Virus record (IMG/VR): IMGVR_UViG_3300034159_000040
DNA: 20,000 nucleotides
Reading direction: 5' to 3' (one strand)
Source of the DNA: an uncultured virus (IMG/VR IMGVR_UViG_3300034159_000040)
Lineage: Duplodnaviria > Heunggongvirae > Uroviricota > Caudoviricetes
The notes below the pieces were generated by a model. The model searched no databases. It was not told where the DNA came from and worked only from the letters and a program-made list of their open reading frames with translations. Made by a program: the position numbers and the translations under genes. Shown in pieces: positions 1-19,870 of this stretch (positions are counted from its first letter, which is position 1; every line of letters starts with the position of its first letter).

Positions 1-41
1 CGGCAAAGGACCGGGCTCTTTCCCACGGAGTATGCGGCGCC

Positions 42-284
42 ATGACCCGCCACACCATCCTATTCGAGTGGCCGGGCGACACCGTGCCAAATATCGACCG
101 CAAGCAAACATGGTGCGGAGGTAAGTTGCAAGCAATTGGTTTTGAAGATGTTTTCTGGGAACATGCCCGATTGCGCGCGGCCCTGGAGCGCATCGCCGAC
201 GGCTGGGGGATTACCGACCTGGAGGGGGCGCGCGAGGCGGCTGAGGCGGCGTTGCGCCGGCCCACGGAGGGCCAGCCGTCGTGA
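42..284 (+). CDS. Phage hypothetical protein (80 aa)
   Basis: GGAG upstream, ATGA overlap with a preceding partial ORF, GTGA overlap with the next gene. Confidence 0.7.
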   Translation: MTRHTILFEWPGDTVPNIDRKQTWCGGKLQAIGFEDVFWEHARLRAALERIADGWGITDLEGAREAAEAALRRPTEGQPS

Positions 285-616
285 GCGCCGAGACCCGCGG
301 TCCCGTCATCGAGCGCGTCGGCCTGGTCGCGGTCACGGTCCAGGTGCAGCAGGAGGCCGGGCAGTGGATCGCTAGGATATCCAGCATCGGGCGCGGAAGC
401 CTGACCAGCCAACCCTGCGCCAGCGCCGATGACGCCGTGGCATCGGTGTGCAGGCTGGCGAGCTATCCGCATCGGCTGCCGGAGTATGCCGCTCCGACGA
501 CCTACCGCGCCGAGCGTGACCGGCCATGCACCTGCCATCCAGACGACCGGCCGCCCGGTCCCTGCCCACGGCGTTATGCGGCCAGCGAGTGCCAACAAGC
601 GGCCATTGAACCATGA
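281..616 (+). CDS. Phage hypothetical protein with Cys-rich C-terminus (CTCHPDDRPPGPCPRRYAASEC)
   Basis: Coupled by GTGA/ATGA overlaps at both ends; GC3-rich codons. Confidence 0.7.
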   Translation: MSAETRGPVIERVGLVAVTVQVQQEAGQWIARISSIGRGSLTSQPCASADDAVASVCRLASYPHRLPEYAAPTTYRAERDRPCTCHPDDRPPGPCPRRYAASECQQAAIEP

Positions 617-853
617 CTTACCCTCACGCCGAGCCCGCGGCGACCGAGCCCGACCGCCCCTTTCGTAGCCCCGTCACGGACTCAGGGCCACGTCTTCGCC
701 TATCAGGTCACCGACCACCCCGGACGATGGCTGCGCGTGATCGCCCCCGAGGACACCCTGGAGATCCTGGAGGCGGACCTGCGCGAGCAGTTCGGGGACC
801 GGTTCGTGGCGGTGCGGGCCGACTCGTGGCGGGCGGTGCGCCATGACCACTGA
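613..853 (+). pseudogene. Small phage protein split by a +1 frameshift near 655-670
   Basis: The ATG 613 frame reads MTYPHAEPAATEPDRPF then degenerates into R/P/G-rich sequence. The +1 frame, with no start codon between 617 and the protein-like stretch, reads VAPSRTQGHVFAYQVTDHPGRWLRVIAPEDTLEILEADLREQFGDRFVAVRADSWRAVRHDH* (stop 851-853) with typical GC3 bias. Confidence 0.6.
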
Positions 854-1079
854 CCCCACCCCGACCCCGCGCTCGTGCCTCACCTGCCGCTGGTGCGCGC
901 CCGGCTCGCCCACCGAGCCAGCGACCTGCGCGTGGCTGCGCCACCTGCTCGACGGCCGCGAGCCACCGCCCTGGGTGGCGATCTTGCTGGTGCCCCAGCA
1001 CGTCCTGGTCGGCGACGGCGCGATGGGGGCTCGCTGCCGGGCCTGGCTGCGGGGAAGGTCGGGGGAGGGGGTGGCGTGA
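843..1079 (+). CDS. Phage hypothetical protein with CxxCxxC motif
   Basis: SCLTCRWC...C...C pattern; overlaps the upstream gene end. Confidence 0.65.
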   Translation: MTTDPTPTPRSCLTCRWCAPGSPTEPATCAWLRHLLDGREPPPWVAILLVPQHVLVGDGAMGARCRAWLRGRSGEGVA

Positions 1080-1085
1080 ACGCGC

Positions 1086-1114
1086 TTGATTTCGCCTTAT
1101 CTCAGGCATACAGT
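1086..1114 (+). promoter_or_regulatory. Sigma70-like promoter upstream of the HTH/replication operon
   Basis: TTGATT (1086-1091), 17 bp spacer, TACAGT (1109-1114); AAGGTG RBS at 1129-1134 before ATG 1142. Confidence 0.6.
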
Positions 1115-1141
1115 CGGCACACCGCAACAAGGTGTCACAAT

Positions 1142-1381
1142 ATGCCAAATCTAACCGAAACCAACCGCCCCCGTGTCTGGCACACCGAAGAACAGGAGGC
1201 CGCGCGCCTCGGCTTCAAGCACCGGACCCTGCGCCTGTGGCGCGCGAGCAAAAAAGGACCGCCGTTCATGCTCATCAACGGGTCGATCCGCTACAACCCG
1301 GATGCGGTAGATGCCTGGGTCCTGGCGCAGAACGTCCAACCAGAAGGCGATCAGGACGAGAAAAGCGCCGCAAGTCGCTGA
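1142..1381 (+). CDS. AlpA/excisionase-type (HTH_17-like) DNA-binding protein, 79 aa
   Basis: TEEQEAARLGFKHRTLRLWRASKKGPPFMLINGSIRYNPDAVDAWV fits the winged-HTH pattern. True start is ATG 1142, not 875. Confidence 0.85.
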   Translation: MPNLTETNRPRVWHTEEQEAARLGFKHRTLRLWRASKKGPPFMLINGSIRYNPDAVDAWVLAQNVQPEGDQDEKSAASR

Positions 1382-1390
1382 GAAAAAAAC

Positions 1391-2248
1391 ATGAGTAACG
1401 ACGCTACCCACTGGGCTTGGCGGCAAGTTGTGAACAGCAGCAGCGCAAAGCTCGTGTTGCTTTCGATCGCGGATCGCGCCGACGAAATGCACACGGCTTA
1501 CCCAAGTATCGAGCGGTTAGCAATGGATACTGAACTTGACCGGAAGACAGTGATGTTGGCCATTGAACACCTAGAGAAAGTTGGCGTGATCTCCGCAGAT
1601 CGGGGAAACGGAAGACGGACTCACTACCAACTGGTCGGGGTGATCGGCCGAGAGGATGGACAAACAAGACCAGTACCAAAAACGGGACTGGTCGAAAAAC
1701 GCAAAATCGGTACCAAAAACGGGACCGGTACCAAAAACGGGACCGGTACCAAAAACGGGACCCAGACCAGTCCCGAAAACGGGACTGGAGCAGTACCAAA
1801 AACGGGACACGAACCAATCAATAACCAATCAGTGAACCGGAAAGAGGGGGAGAAGGGGCGCCCGACCGACTCGACTCCTGCTGAGACACCGCAGGCGGCT
1901 GCGCCGCAACCCCCTCCCCGCCGCGCCCGATTTGTTCCTCCCACGGTTGAGGAGGTCCGCGCCTACTGCCGTGAGCGCGGGAATGCCATCGATCCTGAGC
2001 GTTTCATGAACTACAACAACTCATCTGGCTGGGTAATCGGAAAGTCCCTGAAGCCGATGAGCGACTGGAGAGCAGCAATCAGGACTTGGGAAACAAACCA
2101 AGGCCAACACACCAACACCCCCGGAGGCAACCATGGCCAGCGACCCGACCGACCCACCTTCAGCGAACTCAACCGACTCGACTACGAGCAACATTGCGGA
2201 CATCAAGATCCACCGGAGAGAGTCGTGTCTGGCATGGTTGTTCCGTGA
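1391..2248 (+). CDS. Phage replication initiator (lambda O analogue): N-terminal HTH_36-like domain, iteron-encoded linker, C-terminal replisome-organiser-type domain
   Basis: AKLVLLSIADRADE..AYPSIERLAMDTELDRKTVMLAIEHLEKVGVI; internal (GTKNGT)n repeats; RFVPPTVEEVRAYCRERGNAIDPERF...GW...MSDWRAAIRTWE. Confidence 0.88.
   Translation: MSNDATHWAWRQVVNSSSAKLVLLSIADRADEMHTAYPSIERLAMDTELDRKTVMLAIEHLEKVGVISADRGNGRRTHYQLVGVIGREDGQTRPVPKTGLVEKRKIGTKNGTGTKNGTGTKNGTQTSPENGTGAVPKTGHEPINNQSVNRKEGEKGRPTDSTPAETPQAAAPQPPPRRARFVPPTVEEVRAYCRERGNAIDPERFMNYNNSSGWVIGKSLKPMSDWRAAIRTWETNQGQHTNTPGGNHGQRPDRPTFSELNRLDYEQHCGHQDPPERVVSGMVVP
1673..1808. repeat. Iteron array, probable phage replication origin
   Basis: GTACCAAAAACGGGAC at 1673, 1710, 1728, 1746 and 1793, plus variant GTCCCGAAAACGGGAC at 1770. 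Followed by A-rich ACCAATCAATAACCAATCA. Confidence 0.88.
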
Positions 2249-2747
2249 GCTTGGCAACGAGTTCAAGGGGCGCTGGTCGGCCGACATGAAGTCGGCCGCG
2301 GATGTGCGCGACGCGAAAGTCTCGTGGTGGACGCACATCCACGACCTGAGCAAAGAGGAAATCCAGCACGCCCTGAGCGTCATGCCGACCGGCAAGGATG
2401 CCTGGCCTCCGGGTCCGCGCGAGTTCCGCAAGCTGGCCCGCTCCAATCGCCCGGCCCAGCCGGCGACCTACCTGCCGTCCCCACCGCGCACCCGCGACCA
2501 GCACCAGGCCGCGCTCGGGCACCTGCAAGCGATCCGCACGCTGCTGCCGCAGGTCCCGGTAGCCGCCGCCGTACTGCCCCAGGCGGACGGAGCGGTCCCT
2601 GACGATCCGGAGGCCGCCGCGCCGCTGGTCGATCCGCTCGCCCAGCGTCGCGCCTTCCTGGATCGCCATGCCGAGGACCTGCACGCGCTCGGGTTGGCGC
2701 GGTTCGCCCGTGAGCGGCCGGTCACGCAACCGCTCGATGCGCCGTGA
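2133..2747 (+). CDS. Replication protein P-like helicase loader
   Basis: Directly follows and overlaps the initiator; GGAGG RBS before ATG 2133; LFREL...RW...AKVSWW...LSKEEIQHAL...WPPGPREFRKL resembles the lambda P-like signature. Confidence 0.68.
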   Translation: MASDPTDPPSANSTDSTTSNIADIKIHRRESCLAWLFRELGNEFKGRWSADMKSAADVRDAKVSWWTHIHDLSKEEIQHALSVMPTGKDAWPPGPREFRKLARSNRPAQPATYLPSPPRTRDQHQAALGHLQAIRTLLPQVPVAAAVLPQADGAVPDDPEAAAPLVDPLAQRRAFLDRHAEDLHALGLARFARERPVTQPLDAP

Positions 2748-2757
2748 TGTATGACCG

Positions 2758-4143
2758 ATGGCCAGCTATCGCGCCTATCTCGACAGCCCGGCGTGGCGGT
2801 CGCTACGCCGGGCCGCCAGGCAGCGGGCGGGGAATCGGTGCGAATTGTGCGGGGCCGGCGCGGATGCGGTGCATCACGTCACCTACCCTAAGCGATGGGC
2901 AGATGACCACCTGGACAACTTGATTGTCGTTTGTAATTACCACCACGATCTTTTGCATGGGGTACGAGGTGAAACTATGAGCGGTGAGGTTCTTATCATT
3001 GAGGGGATCGAAAGCAAAGACGGATGGCTGGACTTCGATCAACTGCATGCGCTGCTGCATACCTACAAAATAACGTCGAAACATGACGGTCAAGACTTTA
3101 TTTCAAGGAGCAATGCTAAGTCGTGCGACTGGTACTATGACCAAATTAAACCGAAGTACAAGAAGCTCGGCAGCGTCAAATTGCTATCAGGAGCAACCAT
3201 CAATCGCCGGTGGGTGAACGAGCATGGAGCCTATCAATTCGCTTTGATGTGCAACACACCAAACGCTGAGCCGTTCCAGGAATTGGTTTTGGAAAAGATC
3301 ATTCCTCAAGTGAGAAGAACAGGATCATTCGTCCCTGAGTTAACTGGAAACAACCTTGCCGATTTTGCGCTGAACCTAAGCGAGCAAGCGAAGATCGTGG
3401 CGCGCTCTATTTTAGAATCAGCGGAAGCAAAGCGGGTTGCCGATAAGGCCGCGCAGGACGCGCACGAAGCCAGCATCGGCGTGGCGGACTGTCGCACTCG
3501 GCTTGATGATGCGGTCCAGCGCCTTGACGAAATTACCGGGGACAAGGTTTTAATGACCGCGATGCTCTTTTTGAAGAAATCTGGAGTCAATCCACAAGCA
3601 ATCTATCCCCGGACGCGCGACACGAACGCCAAAGTGCTTGGTGGGTGGTGCACGAGGGAGAGCCGGCGCCGCGGACTGCCGTTGCCGGAGAAGATCGCCA
3701 TGGGCGGTTTCGACGTCAATCAATATGAGCCCGCCTTACTGAGCGAGGGAGTCAAGGCGCTTGGAATGATACAAGACCAAAATCGCGCCACCGATCCGGC
3801 GTGCTCGCAATTTCGTTGGAAGCTGCCCACCAACACCGCCGAGTGGCATCGCCTGGTCGACGGATTAAAGATCACTGGCATAGCCGCGCAACTAGCCCGT
3901 CATTGCAATCTCGTCGCGTTGAGTGACGGGCACTTGACGTTGCAACTTGATCCAGCCGCCGAAGATCTACGCACGCCGACGATTGAGGAACGGCTGCGGT
4001 CATCCGTAGCCGCCGCACTTAATGAACCGGCGTTGCGGTTGGAGGTTCGCGTGGTGCGACTCGATAACGACGTGGTGGTGAAGCGATTGCGCGAACAATT
4101 CGGGGCGGCGGTTGTTCCTGGTAGCGTCCAAATATGTCCATGA
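2758..4143 (+). CDS. Multidomain protein: HNH endonuclease + Bro-N (antirepressor-type) + coiled coil + DNA polymerase III tau C-terminal (domain V)-like domain
   Basis: CELC...VHH..Y...DNLIVVCNYHHDLLH (HNH); WVNEHGAYQFALMCNTPNAEPFQELVLEKIIPQVRRTGSF (Bro-N); EWHRLVDGLKITGIAAQLARHC...LTLQLDP...LREQFGAAVVPGSVQ (DnaX C-terminus-like). Confidence 0.8.
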   Translation: MASYRAYLDSPAWRSLRRAARQRAGNRCELCGAGADAVHHVTYPKRWADDHLDNLIVVCNYHHDLLHGVRGETMSGEVLIIEGIESKDGWLDFDQLHALLHTYKITSKHDGQDFISRSNAKSCDWYYDQIKPKYKKLGSVKLLSGATINRRWVNEHGAYQFALMCNTPNAEPFQELVLEKIIPQVRRTGSFVPELTGNNLADFALNLSEQAKIVARSILESAEAKRVADKAAQDAHEASIGVADCRTRLDDAVQRLDEITGDKVLMTAMLFLKKSGVNPQAIYPRTRDTNAKVLGGWCTRESRRRGLPLPEKIAMGGFDVNQYEPALLSEGVKALGMIQDQNRATDPACSQFRWKLPTNTAEWHRLVDGLKITGIAAQLARHCNLVALSDGHLTLQLDPAAEDLRTPTIEERLRSSVAAALNEPALRLEVRVVRLDNDVVVKRLREQFGAAVVPGSVQICP

Positions 4144-4445
4144 CCAACCCCTCCCCCGGGCCCCAGCCCTGGACCGGCCTACCCGACCCGGCCGACCTGT
4201 CGGCTGACCTGGACGCCGAGGCGCACCCGCGCACCGCCGCCGACTGGACCCCGGAGGCGATCCGCGCCTGGTGCCTCCCCCGCGGTCGCGACCCGGCCTG
4301 GTTTCTCGATCCGGCGCCGCGGTCCAATCCCGACCCCGACCCGGTGCAGCGGATGGCCGCCAGAGCGCACCAGCGCCCCGTAGAGCCATCCGCGGCCCCT
4401 GACCCTGCCCACCCTACCGACCAACCCCCGGAGAGCCCCCAATGA
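4134..4445 (+). CDS. Pro-rich phage hypothetical protein (start may be ATG 4140)
   Basis: ATGA overlaps with both neighbours; GC3 bias. Confidence 0.6.
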   Translation: MSMTNPSPGPQPWTGLPDPADLSADLDAEAHPRTAADWTPEAIRAWCLPRGRDPAWFLDPAPRSNPDPDPVQRMAARAHQRPVEPSAAPDPAHPTDQPPESPQ

Positions 4446-4705
4446 GCGATATCAGCGACCGCATCCGCCGCATCGACCGCCTGCTGGCCGATGCCGCGAC
4501 CCAGCAGCCGAAAACCACGGCTGGCAGGCTAGAAATCATGGAGGGCATCATCGCGGCCTTGCCCGTGTCCATGCAGGTCGAAACCGCCTGGTGCGCCGCG
4601 GCCCTGGAGCGGCTGCTCGAAGGCTACCCGCCGGCGACAGCCGCGATGGCGCTGACGTTCGTGGAGGCCCGTTTGGCCGCGCGGGTACTGGGGGGCAAGC
4701 CGTGA
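4442..4705 (+). CDS. Phage hypothetical protein (87 aa)
   Basis: GGAG RBS, ATGA/GTGA coupling, helical composition. Confidence 0.7.
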   Translation: MSDISDRIRRIDRLLADAATQQPKTTAGRLEIMEGIIAALPVSMQVETAWCAAALERLLEGYPPATAAMALTFVEARLAARVLGGKP

Positions 4706-5160
4706 CCGGCCCGCGCTACAACACGGGTCGCAACCCGCCCAAGCGACGCATGGACCCGGACGCCCTGGCGGCATCGATGCTGATCCAGGCCCCGAGCGCC
4801 GAGGCGCTGGCCGCCCGTAAGGCGATGGCGGCCCACCAGGCGGCGGCGCAGATCCCGGCCGAGCATGTTTTCCCGCGCGAGCTGGAGGCCCGGCTGCGCG
4901 AGATGGACCCGCCACCGCGCCCCCCGCCCCGGGCACCGCCGGTCGAAGTCCAACCCCACCCGCCCGAGGTGGGCGACCCGGCGCTGCTGCTGGCCGTCCT
5001 GCGCGAGCACTACAGCGACGCCTGCCGGCTGCTGGCGGCCGAGGCGCCCTACGACGCATCGCAGGGACGGGCGCCGAGCCAGTGGGTGCGGGGTTTCGAG
5101 TGCTGCGCGCAACTGGCGCTGCTGCGGGCCGGGTTTTCGCTGTTTGAGCCGGAGTCGTGA
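4702..5160 (+). CDS. Phage hypothetical protein
   Basis: GTG 4702 overlaps the previous stop and is in frame with track ORF 4591..5160; GC3 bias. Confidence 0.65.
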   Translation: MTGPRYNTGRNPPKRRMDPDALAASMLIQAPSAEALAARKAMAAHQAAAQIPAEHVFPRELEARLREMDPPPRPPPRAPPVEVQPHPPEVGDPALLLAVLREHYSDACRLLAAEAPYDASQGRAPSQWVRGFECCAQLALLRAGFSLFEPES

Positions 5161-5339
5161 GTGCCGACTACACCGCCCGCGACGGCAACCGGCAAACGGC
5201 ACCCTGGGAGCGGGCCTAGAATGCCCGCAGAATTTCTAAAACGTCGAGCAAAATGGCATCTACGCGAAAAGCGGCCCACTGGCGGTGCGAGTGTGGCGGG
5301 TAGCCGGCCAGCTATCCAAAAACGAGGAGATTCCCAGCG

Positions 5340-5804
5340 ATGACCAAATCCGAGCTGTTCGCCGCCTTCGACAGCCAGATCTCCAGGACGGCGATCCGGC
5401 AGGATTTTGACGGTTGCGCCGACAACGAGTGGGCGGTCGTCGGCAAGTTCTGCCGCATCGTGCCCATCGCGAGCGGTTGGGACGTGTGGCTGTGCAACTC
5501 CCGCGACCCAACGGCGGGCCTGACGCCGCGCAAGGTGACGGCGATCCTGGTCGGTCTCGCTGACCTGCTGGCCCCGGACCACGCGCCGCACGCGCCGGGT
5601 GCGGCTGCGACCTGGGGTGCGTGGCATGTGCTCGACGGGGAGGCGTGGACGCGGCGGTTGACGCGCGACGAGATACTGGCGTGCCTGTCGATCCTGGGCA
5701 TCCGGCGGCGCAAAGTGGTCAGCGACGCCTGGCGGGCGGCGGCTCGCGAGCGACTGGTCGCCCTGCGCCCTGTGGGCGGTGCGGCCGTATCAGCGGATGA
5801 CTGA
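5340..5804 (+). CDS. Phage hypothetical protein (154 aa)
   Basis: GAGGAG RBS upstream; protein-like composition with basic C-terminal helix. Confidence 0.72.
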   Translation: MTKSELFAAFDSQISRTAIRQDFDGCADNEWAVVGKFCRIVPIASGWDVWLCNSRDPTAGLTPRKVTAILVGLADLLAPDHAPHAPGAAATWGAWHVLDGEAWTRRLTRDEILACLSILGIRRRKVVSDAWRAAARERLVALRPVGGAAVSADD

Positions 5805-5809
5805 GAATA

Positions 5810-6013
5810 ATGACTAATCGATCCCAAACAAAAGAACTTTATCTTTTCGCCGAAGATGATACTTGGATGAAATTCGAGTTAAGGGCTGATTACGAGTTTT
5901 TTATAACCTACATTCCCGATACGTTGGTTGAAACAGAAGAAACTGAGCTTCCTTTCCTTTCCAGGGAAGACGCCAAGAAACTGCGCGATTTTCTTATCTA
6001 TGCTCTTGCGTGA
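5810..6013 (+). CDS. Small acidic hypothetical protein, low GC
   Basis: Fills the gap between neighbours, GTGA overlap with the next gene; AT-rich codons. Confidence 0.65.
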   Translation: MTNRSQTKELYLFAEDDTWMKFELRADYEFFITYIPDTLVETEETELPFLSREDAKKLRDFLIYALA

Positions 6014-6399
6014 TTGAAATGAAAAATATCAACAATATGACAGCCGACGAAATCCGTCAGCTGCTAGATCGATTGAAGCGCGACAAGGACGAGATCACCA
6101 AGCAGTTGGAGGACGCCCGCAGTGCGGCGGCGGTGGACGGGGTATTTTCCGACCGTGAATGGTTTACGTCCGCTAAACACGCCGAGCGGATCAAGGGCCG
6201 CCAGATCGGCGAGGTGCAGATCGCGCTTGGGGTTGCCCTAAAGGAGCAGCGCGCCACCGCTTCTGAGGCCCAGAGTGTGCGTTTCGAGCGCGAGTTTATG
6301 CGCCAAGCGCGTGCCATTCTGCCGCGAGTCCTGTACGAGGAAGTGCTGAACGAAACCGTGGCGGCGACGACCAATGACAGCGATCCCGACCCAACTTGA
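6010..6399 (+). CDS. Coiled-coil phage hypothetical protein (start may be ATG 6019)
   Basis: Heptad-like helices; coupled to neighbours. Confidence 0.72.
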   Translation: MIEMKNINNMTADEIRQLLDRLKRDKDEITKQLEDARSAAAVDGVFSDREWFTSAKHAERIKGRQIGEVQIALGVALKEQRATASEAQSVRFEREFMRQARAILPRVLYEEVLNETVAATTNDSDPDPT

Positions 6400-6838
6400 C
6401 CTCTTCGACGGCCGCCGCAAGGCCCGCAACCCGATCGTCTGGCCGACCGAGCACGAGGACCAATGCGCGCTCATCGCCTGGGCCGCTTGGGAGGAGCGCC
6501 GACGCCCCGAACTGCGCCTGTTGCACGCCATACCCAACGGCGGCGAGCGGTATGCCGCGGTCGCGGTGGGGCTCCAGGCCGAGGGCGTGAAGCCGGGTGT
6601 CCCGGATCTGGACCTACCGGTGCCCCGTGGCAACTTCTGCGGTCTGCGCATTGAAATGAAACGGCAAGGGCGCAAGCCGAAGCCGACGAGCGAGCAGTCG
6701 CAGTGGCTTGCAGACCTGGCCGCCGTGGGCCACTCCTGCCACGTTTGCCAGGGCTGGGAAGCGGCCCGCGCCGTGATTCTGGCGTACCTCGCGCTCGATG
6801 CCGGCCGCGGTTCTCTGCCGCCCGCAGATACCCGCTAG
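6374..6838 (+). CDS. VRR-NUC domain nuclease (PD-(D/E)xK, resolvase-like)
   Basis: TEHEDQ...LLHAIPNGG.R...AEGVKPGVPDL.L...LRIEMKR...PTSEQSQWLADL..VG...VCQGWEAA. Confidence 0.92.
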   Translation: MTAIPTQLDLFDGRRKARNPIVWPTEHEDQCALIAWAAWEERRRPELRLLHAIPNGGERYAAVAVGLQAEGVKPGVPDLDLPVPRGNFCGLRIEMKRQGRKPKPTSEQSQWLADLAAVGHSCHVCQGWEAARAVILAYLALDAGRGSLPPADTR

Positions 6839-6870
6839 ACTGTACACATCAACCCGCAACCGAGTATTCC

Positions 6871-7182
6871 ATGAGCTATTTCGACGCCCCCTTGCCTGAC
6901 CCGACAGTCCCGACCGGCCCCGTGGTGGTCGTGATCTCGCCCCGTACCGCGGTCACCCGCTGGCTGCTCGCCCGTGCCCGCGAGGCATCGACCTGGCGCA
7001 GCCTGGGGCGGCTCGCGACGCTGGTCTTGATCCTTATCTGGCCAACAAAAATCAAGGAAATCGGAATGTTGGGTGTCGCCGCGTCAGAGGTGCTCGGTGT
7101 CCTGCTGCCCGACCGGGTGCTCGGCGGGGCCGCGACCCGCATCACCGATCCGGGGCAACCGGGCAATGCCGATGCGGGATGA
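6871..7182 (+). CDS. Putative holin (two hydrophobic segments)
   Basis: WLLARAREASTWRSL + LATLVLILIW + IGMLGVAASEVLGVLLPD; upstream of the endolysin; start ATG 6871. Confidence 0.65.
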   Translation: MSYFDAPLPDPTVPTGPVVVVISPRTAVTRWLLARAREASTWRSLGRLATLVLILIWPTKIKEIGMLGVAASEVLGVLLPDRVLGGAATRITDPGQPGNADAG

Positions 7183-18437: not shown

Positions 18438-19870
18438 CTACCGAGGCCCTGCTCGTCACCGTCAACAGCACCGAGGATGTCTACACCGTCGTCGTGGCGG
18501 ATGTCGGTGGTCAGGGTCTGCCCGGAGAGCGCGGTGAACCTGGCCGCGGTCTGGACCTTAAAGGCACGGTCGCCACCACCGCCGACCTGCCCACCGAGAC
18601 GGCTTACCCCGGCGACTGCTGGATGGTCCAGGAAGACGCCCATGTGTGGGCGTTTGAGGGCGCCGGGGTCTGGTTCGATGCCGGGACACTGCAAGGTCCG
18701 GCGGGCGCTGATGGTGCCGACTCCACGGTTCCAGGGCCTGCCGGTCCTACTGGCCCCGCGGGCGCCGCGTCCACCGTGCCCGGTCCAGCCGGTCCGGCTG
18801 GCCCTTCAGGTCCGTCCGGGGCCGACTCCACGGTGCCTGGACCTACAGGTCCAACCGGCCCCGCGGGTGAGATTGGTCCGGCCGGACCTGCCGGGGCGAC
18901 TGGTCCGGCGGGCGCGGACTCTACGGTCCCTGGTCCACAGGGACCCCAAGGTCCCCAAGGCCCGACCGGCAGCGCCGGCGCCGACTCAACTGTTGCCGGA
19001 CCCCAAGGCCCGCAGGGTCCCCAGGGTCCCCAAGGCCCCGCCGGATCTGGCGGCACCGGGGCCGGCGTCACGGATGGCGACAAGGGCGACATCATCGTCT
19101 CGGAGTCCGGTGCGGTCTGGACGTTCGACCCCGGCGTGGTTTCGACGGCGGCCCGGGCGCTGCTCGATGACAGCACGGCCACGGCCATGCGCGCGACGCT
19201 CGAACTGGGCACGGCCGCCACCACCGCCACCACCGCCTACGCCACCACCGCCCAGGGCACCGATGCCCGCGTCCCGGTCGTTACCGGCCTGACCGATATT
19301 GGCGCCGCCCTGGCCGACGGCGACGAGTTCCCGGTCTATGACCTCTCGGCGACCGCGATCCGTAAGAGCGCGGCTTCGCGGCTGTGGACCTATGTCTCGG
19401 GGAAGATCGGCACGCTCGGCAGTGCCGCGGCGAAGGACGTGCCGGCCGCCGCAACCCGTGCCACCTCCTCCCAGGTCCCGCTCGGCGATGATCCGCGCCT
19501 GGTCTCACGAGGGGTGATCATCCCCCTGTCGTACCCCAACGCTAACCTCTTCGCTGAGAACAAGAAAGCGGTCTGGTCGTGGCCCGAGAACCGCACGATT
19601 ACCGGCTTTACGGTGTACTGCGATCCCGCTACAAAGCCCGCCGCGACCCACGCGATTTTCGACCTGACTACGCTTCATGCGACGACAGGCGTTGCCACCT
19701 CACTACTGACGACGAAAGCCCAGATCAGTACCGGCACCAGCAGTGGCAGCGGCACCCTCGCCGGATCAACCTATTCCTATATTGCCGGCACCTTGCTATC
19801 GATTGACGTGGATGCCGGGACCGATGGGCGCGGGTATTTCGCCAGCATCACCACCACGCTAACAGGTTAA
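18434..19870 (+). CDS. Collagen-like tail/head fibre protein
   Basis: Long Gly-X-Y tract, [13 protein letters not shown]...WT motif, Thr/Ala-rich shaft, beta-rich C-terminal domain. Confidence 0.85.
18690..19050 (+). repeat. Coding collagen (Gly-X-Y)n repeat interrupted five times by GA(D/A)STV(P/A)
   Basis: [30 protein letters not shown]...[23 protein letters not shown]; coordinates approximate. Confidence 0.9.

Follow-up and report, generated by a model that had tools for sequence, protein, structure and literature searches.

Several phage proteins are known to act on the host replisome, among them Gp168 of Twort (a beta-clamp inhibitor), the case of Mu (beta clamp) and the SPP1 proteins with host DnaX/DnaE. 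In the accounts consulted, none of these is a copy of the polymerase-binding domain of tau. That domain, tau domain V of DnaX (PF12170; PDB 2AYA, 5FKU/5FKV chain E, 8GJ0), combines a KH-like (K homology-like) core with a C-terminal tail. Here we describe an open reading frame (ORF) at 2758..4143 (+ strand) of a 20,000-nucleotide stretch of DNA (the window) from an uncultured virus of the Caudoviricetes (IMG/VR IMGVR_UViG_3300034159_000040), whose product, P0001, shares both the core and the tail. Unlike DnaX, P0001 is without the AAA+ domains I–III and the DnaB-binding domain IV and is fused to HNH and Bro-like modules; its proposed target is the tau-binding domain of alpha, the polymerase subunit of DNA polymerase III (Pol III). 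A preliminary description of the locus knew of no described system of this kind, and the literature searched yielded no description of tau domain V in a phage protein.

Two further groups of described proteins resemble parts of P0001. The phage Bro-N/Ant anti-repressors (phrog_130 and related) are like it in residues 142–239 and in being encoded in the early region, but carry no HNH or tau domain. The N-terminal domain of DciA and domain I of DnaA belong to the same fold class as the core of P0001, although the sequence likeness of that core is to tau and not to DciA. By sequence comparison the C-terminal ~100 residues of P0001 are a homologue of tau domain V. The reading we lean towards, tentatively, is that P0001 is a DNA-acting phage protein whose trimmed tau domain V would tether host Pol III to phage DNA.

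2758..4143, + strand: whole ORF, 461 residues (P0001), comprising an HNH domain, a Bro-N/Ant-like region, a long helix, an unassigned region, the tau domain V core and the tau tail
3835..4059, + strand: tau domain V KH-like core, residues 360–434 (helix-helix-strand-strand-helix-helix-strand), from profile searches, phmmer, AlphaFold2 (AF2) and Foldseek
4060..4140, + strand: putative alpha-binding tail of tau, residues 435–461, aligned to Escherichia coli tau I618–I643 plus one residue

A near-identical viral record, G001 (37,465 bp, rated 61% complete), was used in place of the window's own assembly and encodes P0001 at 100% identity.

Homology of the C-terminal domain to tau domain V

Codons 361–461 and the stop occupy positions 3838–4143, and the peptide cited in the preliminary description is present there. 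That description had recognized the end pattern of DnaX in residues ~361–461, and database searches bear it out. A phmmer search with residues 340–461 against 1.84 billion representative sequences gave 293 matches with E ≤ 1e-3, 14 of them at ≤ 1e-10; the best non-self matches have E-values of 1.0e-21 and 5.2e-20 (52% identity). A Pfam scan of these matches took in P0003–P0060, 58 of the 150 listed. PF12170 is found in 57 of the 58, accompanied by DnaX domain III in 19, and two are full-length DnaX. The protein P0005 (2330 residues, Big_12/subtilase; E 6e-19 over nine stretches) has no PF12170 and was set aside as a repeat-driven match, probably an effect of repeats or composition. Two other matches, P0019 and P0033, join PF12170 to unrelated domains (Lip_A_acyltrans; Biotin_lipoyl); they may be genuine fusions or else chimeras produced by gene calling or assembly.

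Profile searches with P0001 itself agree. The comparison with DNA_pol3_tau_5 that had been proposed as a check recovers the domain (PF12170: E 1.8e-4, residues 360–430 on profile positions 21–90 of 142), but with 22.1 bits against a Pfam gathering cut-off of 28.8. The NCBIfam dnaX equivalog models PRK07994 (5.8e-7) and PRK12323 (2.3e-6) match the same residues. No match to the AAA+, delta2, lid or gamma3 models was found in P0001 with Pfam and NCBIfam, and the DnaX clamp-loader domains I–III are missing, as the preliminary description had it. A single-sequence phmmer search of the PDB with the domain gave no match; a profile built from the phage domain and 53 short phmmer matches finds E. coli tau there (5fku_E, 7.5e-21; 8gj0_B, 5.1e-19; 2aya_A, 4.5e-13).

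The AF2 model made with the domain alignment has a core with predicted local distance difference test (pLDDT) values >90 (mean 81.2, predicted template modelling score 0.65) and the topology H-H-E-E-H-H-E. Foldseek places E. coli tau chains at the top [5fkv_E (E 4.2e-3, template modelling score 0.51/0.54), 5fku_E and 2aya], with weak E-values, followed by the KH relatives DciA and DnaA domain I (8a3v_C, 7ykm, 4tps_D). According to PMC8216460, the DciA N-terminal domain and DnaA domain I share the KH type II fold of tau V and bind DnaB. A DciA-like or DnaA-N-like reading of P0001 was rejected on sequence, with an E-value of 1e-21 for tau vs 0.14 for the DciA Pfam family.

In the core, the alignment begins at W363 (= E. 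coli W523) and runs through to the last strand, LRLEVRVVR. E. coli tau has nine strictly conserved hydrophobic residues; P0001 keeps six of them identical (W523, L530, L554, L556, L563, L572) and replaces two more (L576, I588) conservatively. About 25 residues corresponding to E. coli 593–617 (helix 6) are cleanly deleted, and both the alignments and the AF2 model lack a helix 1 before W363. In E. coli tau, helices 1 and 6 are described as supplementing the KH fold and packing on each other (PMC1888800, Su et al., 2007). The phage copy is thus without both of these DnaX helices, including P599, A614 and S617. The preliminary description had overlooked this deletion as well as the HNH domain at the protein's opposite end.

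The tail and its predicted contact with alpha

Beyond the deletion the resemblance to DnaX resumes. The match to DnaX falls into two stretches and ends ≤3 residues from the DnaX C-terminus, in exact C-terminal register. The equivalences in the tail are D438 = D621, L444 = L627, F448 = F631, A450 = A633, V452 = L635, S456 = S639 and V457 = I640; L627, F631, A633 and S639 are identical in the phage protein and the change of L635 to V is conservative. Because the tail alone (25 residues) is too short for database-wide significance (best 19.3 bits, E 50), its significance is taken from a hidden Markov model (HMM) of 153 DnaX tails, from which phage copies had been left out. The last 23 residues (439–461) score 37.0 bits against this HMM, compared with a maximum of 8.0 in 2000 shuffles.

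The role of these residues is established for E. coli, where the data in PMC1888804 give an affinity of ~0.13–0.26 nM for the binding of tauC16 to alpha. Removal of the 7 C-terminal residues raises the dissociation constant to 6.7 uM, and with 11 or 18 residues removed binding is undetectable by surface plasmon resonance (PMC1888804). PMC1888800 likewise states that alpha is not bound by tauC14, from which the last 18 residues are missing. The statement of the preliminary description that tau's extreme C-terminus is needed for alpha binding is in line with the truncations in PMC1888804. Among the point changes reported there, L627P, S617P and F631I are the most damaging, S617P costing 4.1 kcal/mol. 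L627, F631, A633 and L635, all identical or conservatively replaced in P0001, are E. coli positions at which mutation or deletion has the strongest effect on alpha binding. Tau's final 32 residues on their own bind with 3.8 uM as against 0.13 nM for the whole domain, ~30,000-fold more weakly (PMC1888804, Table 1). Since helices 1 and 6 are missing from P0001, its binding to alpha should be weaker than that of tau; by this analysis the phage copy keeps the main alpha-binding determinants and would probably bind in the micromolar range.

A complex was modelled from residues 355–461 of P0001 (54-row alignment) and the last 264 residues (968–1231) of DnaE from Lamprocystis purpurea (G004; L080:430-4125; 29-row alignment). 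The score is 0.74 (runs 0.75, 0.72 and 0.74), and the best of three controls reached 0.12. The runs agree in ≥86% of contacts and the pLDDT of the partner is ≥86. In calibration, 116 of 157 solved complexes and 2 of 215 mismatched pairs attained this mark, counts that with custom alignments are only a rough guide. The modelled interface comprises phage residues 433–461 plus 384, in contact with residues 160–211 and 241–242 of the DnaE piece. This region of DnaE overlaps PF20914 DNA_pol_IIIA_C (179–228) and lies beyond the OB (oligonucleotide/oligosaccharide-binding) fold at 68–143. L444 and F448 are among the contacts modelled with the lowest error. The model, which puts the tail onto DnaE's C-terminal domain, supports this contact as a prediction. 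Multimer modelling had been put forward in the preliminary description as a check, and its outcome is favourable as regards the score and its controls, and qualified as regards the DnaE used, a stand-in, and the likeness to complexes already solved.

Low-level expression of tauC16 is lethal in E. coli and the suppressor mutations map to the tail (PMC1888804), a precedent for the engagement of alpha by a free domain V in vivo, and P0001 has retained a tail that is modelled to dock on DnaE. Its tail could accordingly be a decoy, drawing Pol III alpha off the host clamp loader by titration and leaving host replisomes uncoupled, with the N-terminal modules irrelevant or separate. We consider such a host shut-off function unlikely. 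Neither the window nor the remainder of G001, which is rated 61% complete, shows a phage DNA polymerase gene, and if the phage therefore needs host Pol III, global sequestration of it would harm the phage as well; the loss of helix 6 predicts a weak affinity, hence a poor competitor of tau at ~0.1–0.3 nM; and the fusion to DNA-binding and nuclease modules would be left unexplained.

N-terminal modules, relatives and origin of the domain

The N-terminal part of P0001 contains the following elements.

2758..2967, + strand: HNH nuclease domain, residues 1–70 (phrog_144, 1.1e-9; phrog_8048, 6e-9)
2966..2979, + strand: candidate internal start, GAGGTG at 2966–2971 five bases before the ATG at 2977 (M74)
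3181..3474, + strand: Bro-N/Ant anti-repressor-like region, residues 142–239 (phrog_130 'anti-repressor Ant', 6.7e-10, and several other Ant PHROGs)
3382..3534, + strand: long predicted helix, residues 209–259, from the full-length AF2 model, with pLDDT <50 there

The residues C28, C31, H39/H40, N54, C59, H62/H63 and H67 are all present in the HNH domain, and the C, H and N positions are invariant in the family alignment. From the motif, we take them to be catalytic residues and zinc ligands. P0001 itself has no match to Pfam HNH at E ≤ 10, though its relatives do, and its HNH part matches that of the metagenomic protein P0028 with an E-value of 2e-20. The nuclease appears intact, as judged from its motif. 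M74 occurs without exception in the eight family proteins aligned. Gene callers yield both a 388-residue and a 461-residue product; the former (start M74) is on record from four contigs, as is the exact 461-residue product. Internal initiation at M74 is possible, and there may be two isoforms, with and without HNH.

With its HNH residues apparently in place, P0001 could be a nuclease that the tail delivers to forks or primer ends, where it would cut host DNA or nick phage DNA for rolling-circle priming. There is a precedent in Ref of phage P1, described in PMC4713147 as an HNH protein targeted by RecA. The activity of the P0001 domain is only putative, however. The module is moreover promiscuous: the same HNH type occurs alone or with other, unrelated C-termini in 34 of 35 metagenome loci. 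The internal start could also give a product free of HNH. We therefore regard a replisome-targeted nuclease as improbable.

For the next two modules the preliminary description named Bro-N and a coiled coil. The Bro-N assignment falls short in Pfam (21.1 vs 25.6 bits; residues 144–183 on profile positions 63–96 of 96), whereas the Ant families of PHROG match residues 142–239, and P0001 matches annotated phage antirepressors in tblastn. The coiled coil corresponds to the helix at 209–259. As the full-length AF2 model is poor (mean pLDDT 57.9), the coiled-coil claim is weak, and we treat the helix as a possible candidate for a coiled coil or oligomerization element.

Five metagenomic proteins have the same order of HNH, Bro-like region, helix and tau core: P0028 (471 residues), which was found by phmmer and carries both HNH and PF12170, P0152, P0153, P0155 and P0158, the last on a 2-kb contig (L054). 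Their PF12170 scores are 30.9, 29.1, 27.1, 23.8 and 18.9 bits, covering only profile positions ~13–94. The HNH domains are 40–50% identical to that of P0001, M74 is invariant and helices 1 and 6 are also missing. The architecture is kept at 25–30% overall identity, and 12 members, spread over many contigs, fall in the P0152 cluster alone. Decay to a one-off fragment, the outcome that the preliminary description had said would speak against it, is thus not what is seen, and the tau KH core appears, on these sequences, to have been reused more than once in phage proteins. The relatives differ from P0001 in the cores, which are only 26–42% identical to its own, and in the end of the protein: all five break off 0–13 residues beyond the final strand of the core, so that the alpha-binding tail is missing. 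The search for the same architecture elsewhere therefore succeeded for the modules up to the core and failed for the tail.

From this it follows that the common function of the family cannot depend on the tail, which in P0001 could be vestigial. P0001 would then be an early regulator of the Ant/Bro type, its KH core serving another partner, DNA or oligomerization as in the tail-less relatives, and its tail a leftover. The five tail-less relatives are the strongest argument for a vestigial tail; given that tauC14 does not bind alpha (PMC1888800), they must do something else. The anti-repressor PHROG matches and the DnaB binding reported for the same fold in DnaA domain I and DciA (PMC8216460) also suit a regulator. 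Against it, a useless tail of 27 residues would not be expected to hold the exact C-terminal register together with the key hydrophobic residues, and the domain is far nearer to tau than to DciA. We hold the regulator to be a possible account, though a doubtful one.

The tau part is missing in the further relatives P0154, P0156 and P0157 and in a protein of the viral contig L112. On L112 (7938-9346) the tau-less member is followed directly by a separate second HNH gene and then by an O-like/primosomal gene and RusA. The gene sits between a cI/cro-like switch and the O-like/primosomal gene, a context which places the family in the early replication region. Other searches had these outcomes: a word-indexed search with residues 340–461 found only P0001 itself; three scans of IMG/VR, aimed at the tau part or at the family, located the tau part only on P0001's own contig, and a fourth picked up one tau-less relative, that on L112; tblastn against 50,697 phage records covered the C-terminal domain in none of the 25 matching records; and plasmids gave no match. 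An unannotated 2.8-kb 'phage' record, the sole match of a DnaX domain V query, was taken as host DNA.

The closest DnaX proteins among species-representative genomes are those of Chromatiaceae (Thiodictyon, Lamprocystis), with 26 loci in a pattern-based scan; the scan is biased to this motif type, and the unbiased phmmer search gave the same kind of top matches. The identity to DnaX is 48–55% over ~92 residues in five of five genomes compared. The P0001 core is identical to that of Thiodictyon DnaX at 45 of 78 positions (58%), about as many as between Thiodictyon and Thiocystis (46 of 78). Each phage core is nearer to bacterial DnaX (40–58%) than to the other phage cores (26–42%). A neighbour-joining tree (79 columns, 73 sequences, 100 bootstraps) pairs the P0001 domain with that of P0028 in 13 of 100 replicates and joins the five phage-family domains in one clade in none; the nearest neighbours outside the family are mainly of Chromatiaceae type in 52 of 100. 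These bootstraps do not separate one capture from several. When the window was compared by blastn with 201 Chromatiaceae genomes, nothing inside 2758–4143 was matched, and since there is no DNA-level likeness to dnaX of Chromatiaceae the capture does not look recent. In three of these genomes the same search found short matches, at 69–77%, for the terminase, O-like and VRR-NUC regions. A Chromatiaceae host is plausible, with weak support from these comparisons. The short repeats of a tail-fibre gene at ~18995–19277 of the window match many Chromatiaceae genomes (84–92% over ~40 bp); this ORF matches the PHROG 'collagen like minor tail'.

The guanine + cytosine (GC) content is 48–60% over ~2850–4100 in a phage of ~70% GC, with the switch near 2880–2900, inside the HNH-coding part, so the module looks acquired by recombination. 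GC dips (47–60%) are also seen at 1350–2250 and 5700–6150 of the window and suggest mosaic modules. The mosaic origin and the internal deletion might be read as signs of a decaying, functionless chimera. This is very improbable: 461 codons run without a stop, eight contig records carry exactly this sequence, the architecture has been conserved despite the low identity noted above, and the core is predicted to fold with confidence.

Replication neighbourhood and a possible tether for host Pol III

On the + strand lie, in this order, small early ORFs, an HTH/excisionase-like ORF, the O-like gene, the P-like gene and the ORF under study.

1391..2248, + strand: O-like replication initiator (phrog_6643, 1.1e-34; HTH_36)
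1668–1808, inside the O-like gene: ~6 iterons, GGTACCAAAAACGGGAC-like, as tandem repeats with periods of 18 and 23 bp
2133..2747, + strand: P-like helicase-loader candidate, a weak assignment (phrog_109 2.3e-5 only, no Pfam match)

The placement next to O and P genes given in the preliminary description holds, firmly for O and weakly for P. The iteron region in the O-like gene is probably the phage origin, in a lambda-like arrangement; an A/T-richer stretch follows the iterons. Between the stop of the P-like gene and the ATG of the studied ORF there are 10 nt. The next ORF (4134–4445, GC-rich, of unknown function) shares its first 10 nt, from the ATG on, with the end of the studied gene, an overlap that suggests translational coupling. 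Farther downstream on the + strand are unknown ORFs, a VRR-NUC nuclease and an M15 endolysin, then terminase, portal, capsid and tail-fibre genes. No tRNA genes were found, and no sigma-70-like promoter was found in window 1–7000. Two genes of G001 lie outside the window: a TrfA-like plasmid replication initiator (L120:4369-5265; PF07042, 4.2e-18), present besides the O-like gene, and, on the minus strand (L120:13426-18999), an open frame of 1857 residues that includes, as in polyvalent proteins, an ART-PolyVal ADP-ribosyltransferase domain (4e-12). With its TrfA-like gene, G001 might be a phage-plasmid or possess a second mode of replication.

In our preferred reading, P0001 would be a protein of the early replication module composed of an HNH domain, a Bro-N/Ant-like domain, a long helix and a trimmed tau domain V. 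The tail would bind the C-terminal domain of alpha and P0001 would link the Pol III core to DNA held by the N-terminal modules. The tether would bring host polymerase to phage DNA, or keep it there, near the origin initiated by O and P. Tethering of host Pol III seems the most likely function because the window and the rest of G001 show no polymerase gene of the phage's own. We favour it over a pure decoy because the tail comes joined to modules for DNA binding and nuclease action and the gene lies in a replication operon, and because the loss of helix 6 should leave a moderate, micromolar-range affinity that would not poison the host replisome.

Several points weigh against this reading. Helix 6 is deleted, and with it A614 and S617, and the last 32 residues of E. 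coli tau, taken alone, are those whose binding PMC1888804 reports as so much reduced. The five relatives of the same architecture all lack the tail. The PF12170 match is partial and lies under its gathering cut-off. Complexes of tau and alpha have already been solved and the score of the model may reflect likeness to them; the DnaE modelled is a stand-in from the lineage of the closest DnaX. Alpha binding is a prediction, and the preference for a tether over a decoy is a matter of argument.

The tether could also be drawn more specifically. P0001 might be a surrogate for tau that needs no clamp loader: an oligomeric, DNA-anchored hub whose captured tail couples host Pol III to phage replication, possibly at a nick made by its own HNH domain, so that the phage would control the start of, or switch to, rolling-circle synthesis without host tau. 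The tail-less relatives would then represent a second use of the core. We offer this version as speculative and rather unlikely.

Phage action on the host clamp and helicase is familiar, and the known cases met in the literature searched target the beta clamp or use phage helicases; no phage-borne polymerase-binding module of tau was found described there. According to PMC1888804, point mutations at L627 and F631 relieve the lethality of free tau domain V in E. coli, and the counterparts of both residues, L444 and F448, are present in P0001. If alpha binding is true, P0001 would represent a minimal alpha-binding module of natural origin, made up of the tail and a core that lacks helices 1 and 6. 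It might then be a lead for peptides directed against the tau–alpha interface, and would provide a handle on how temperate phages get host polymerase at their origins.

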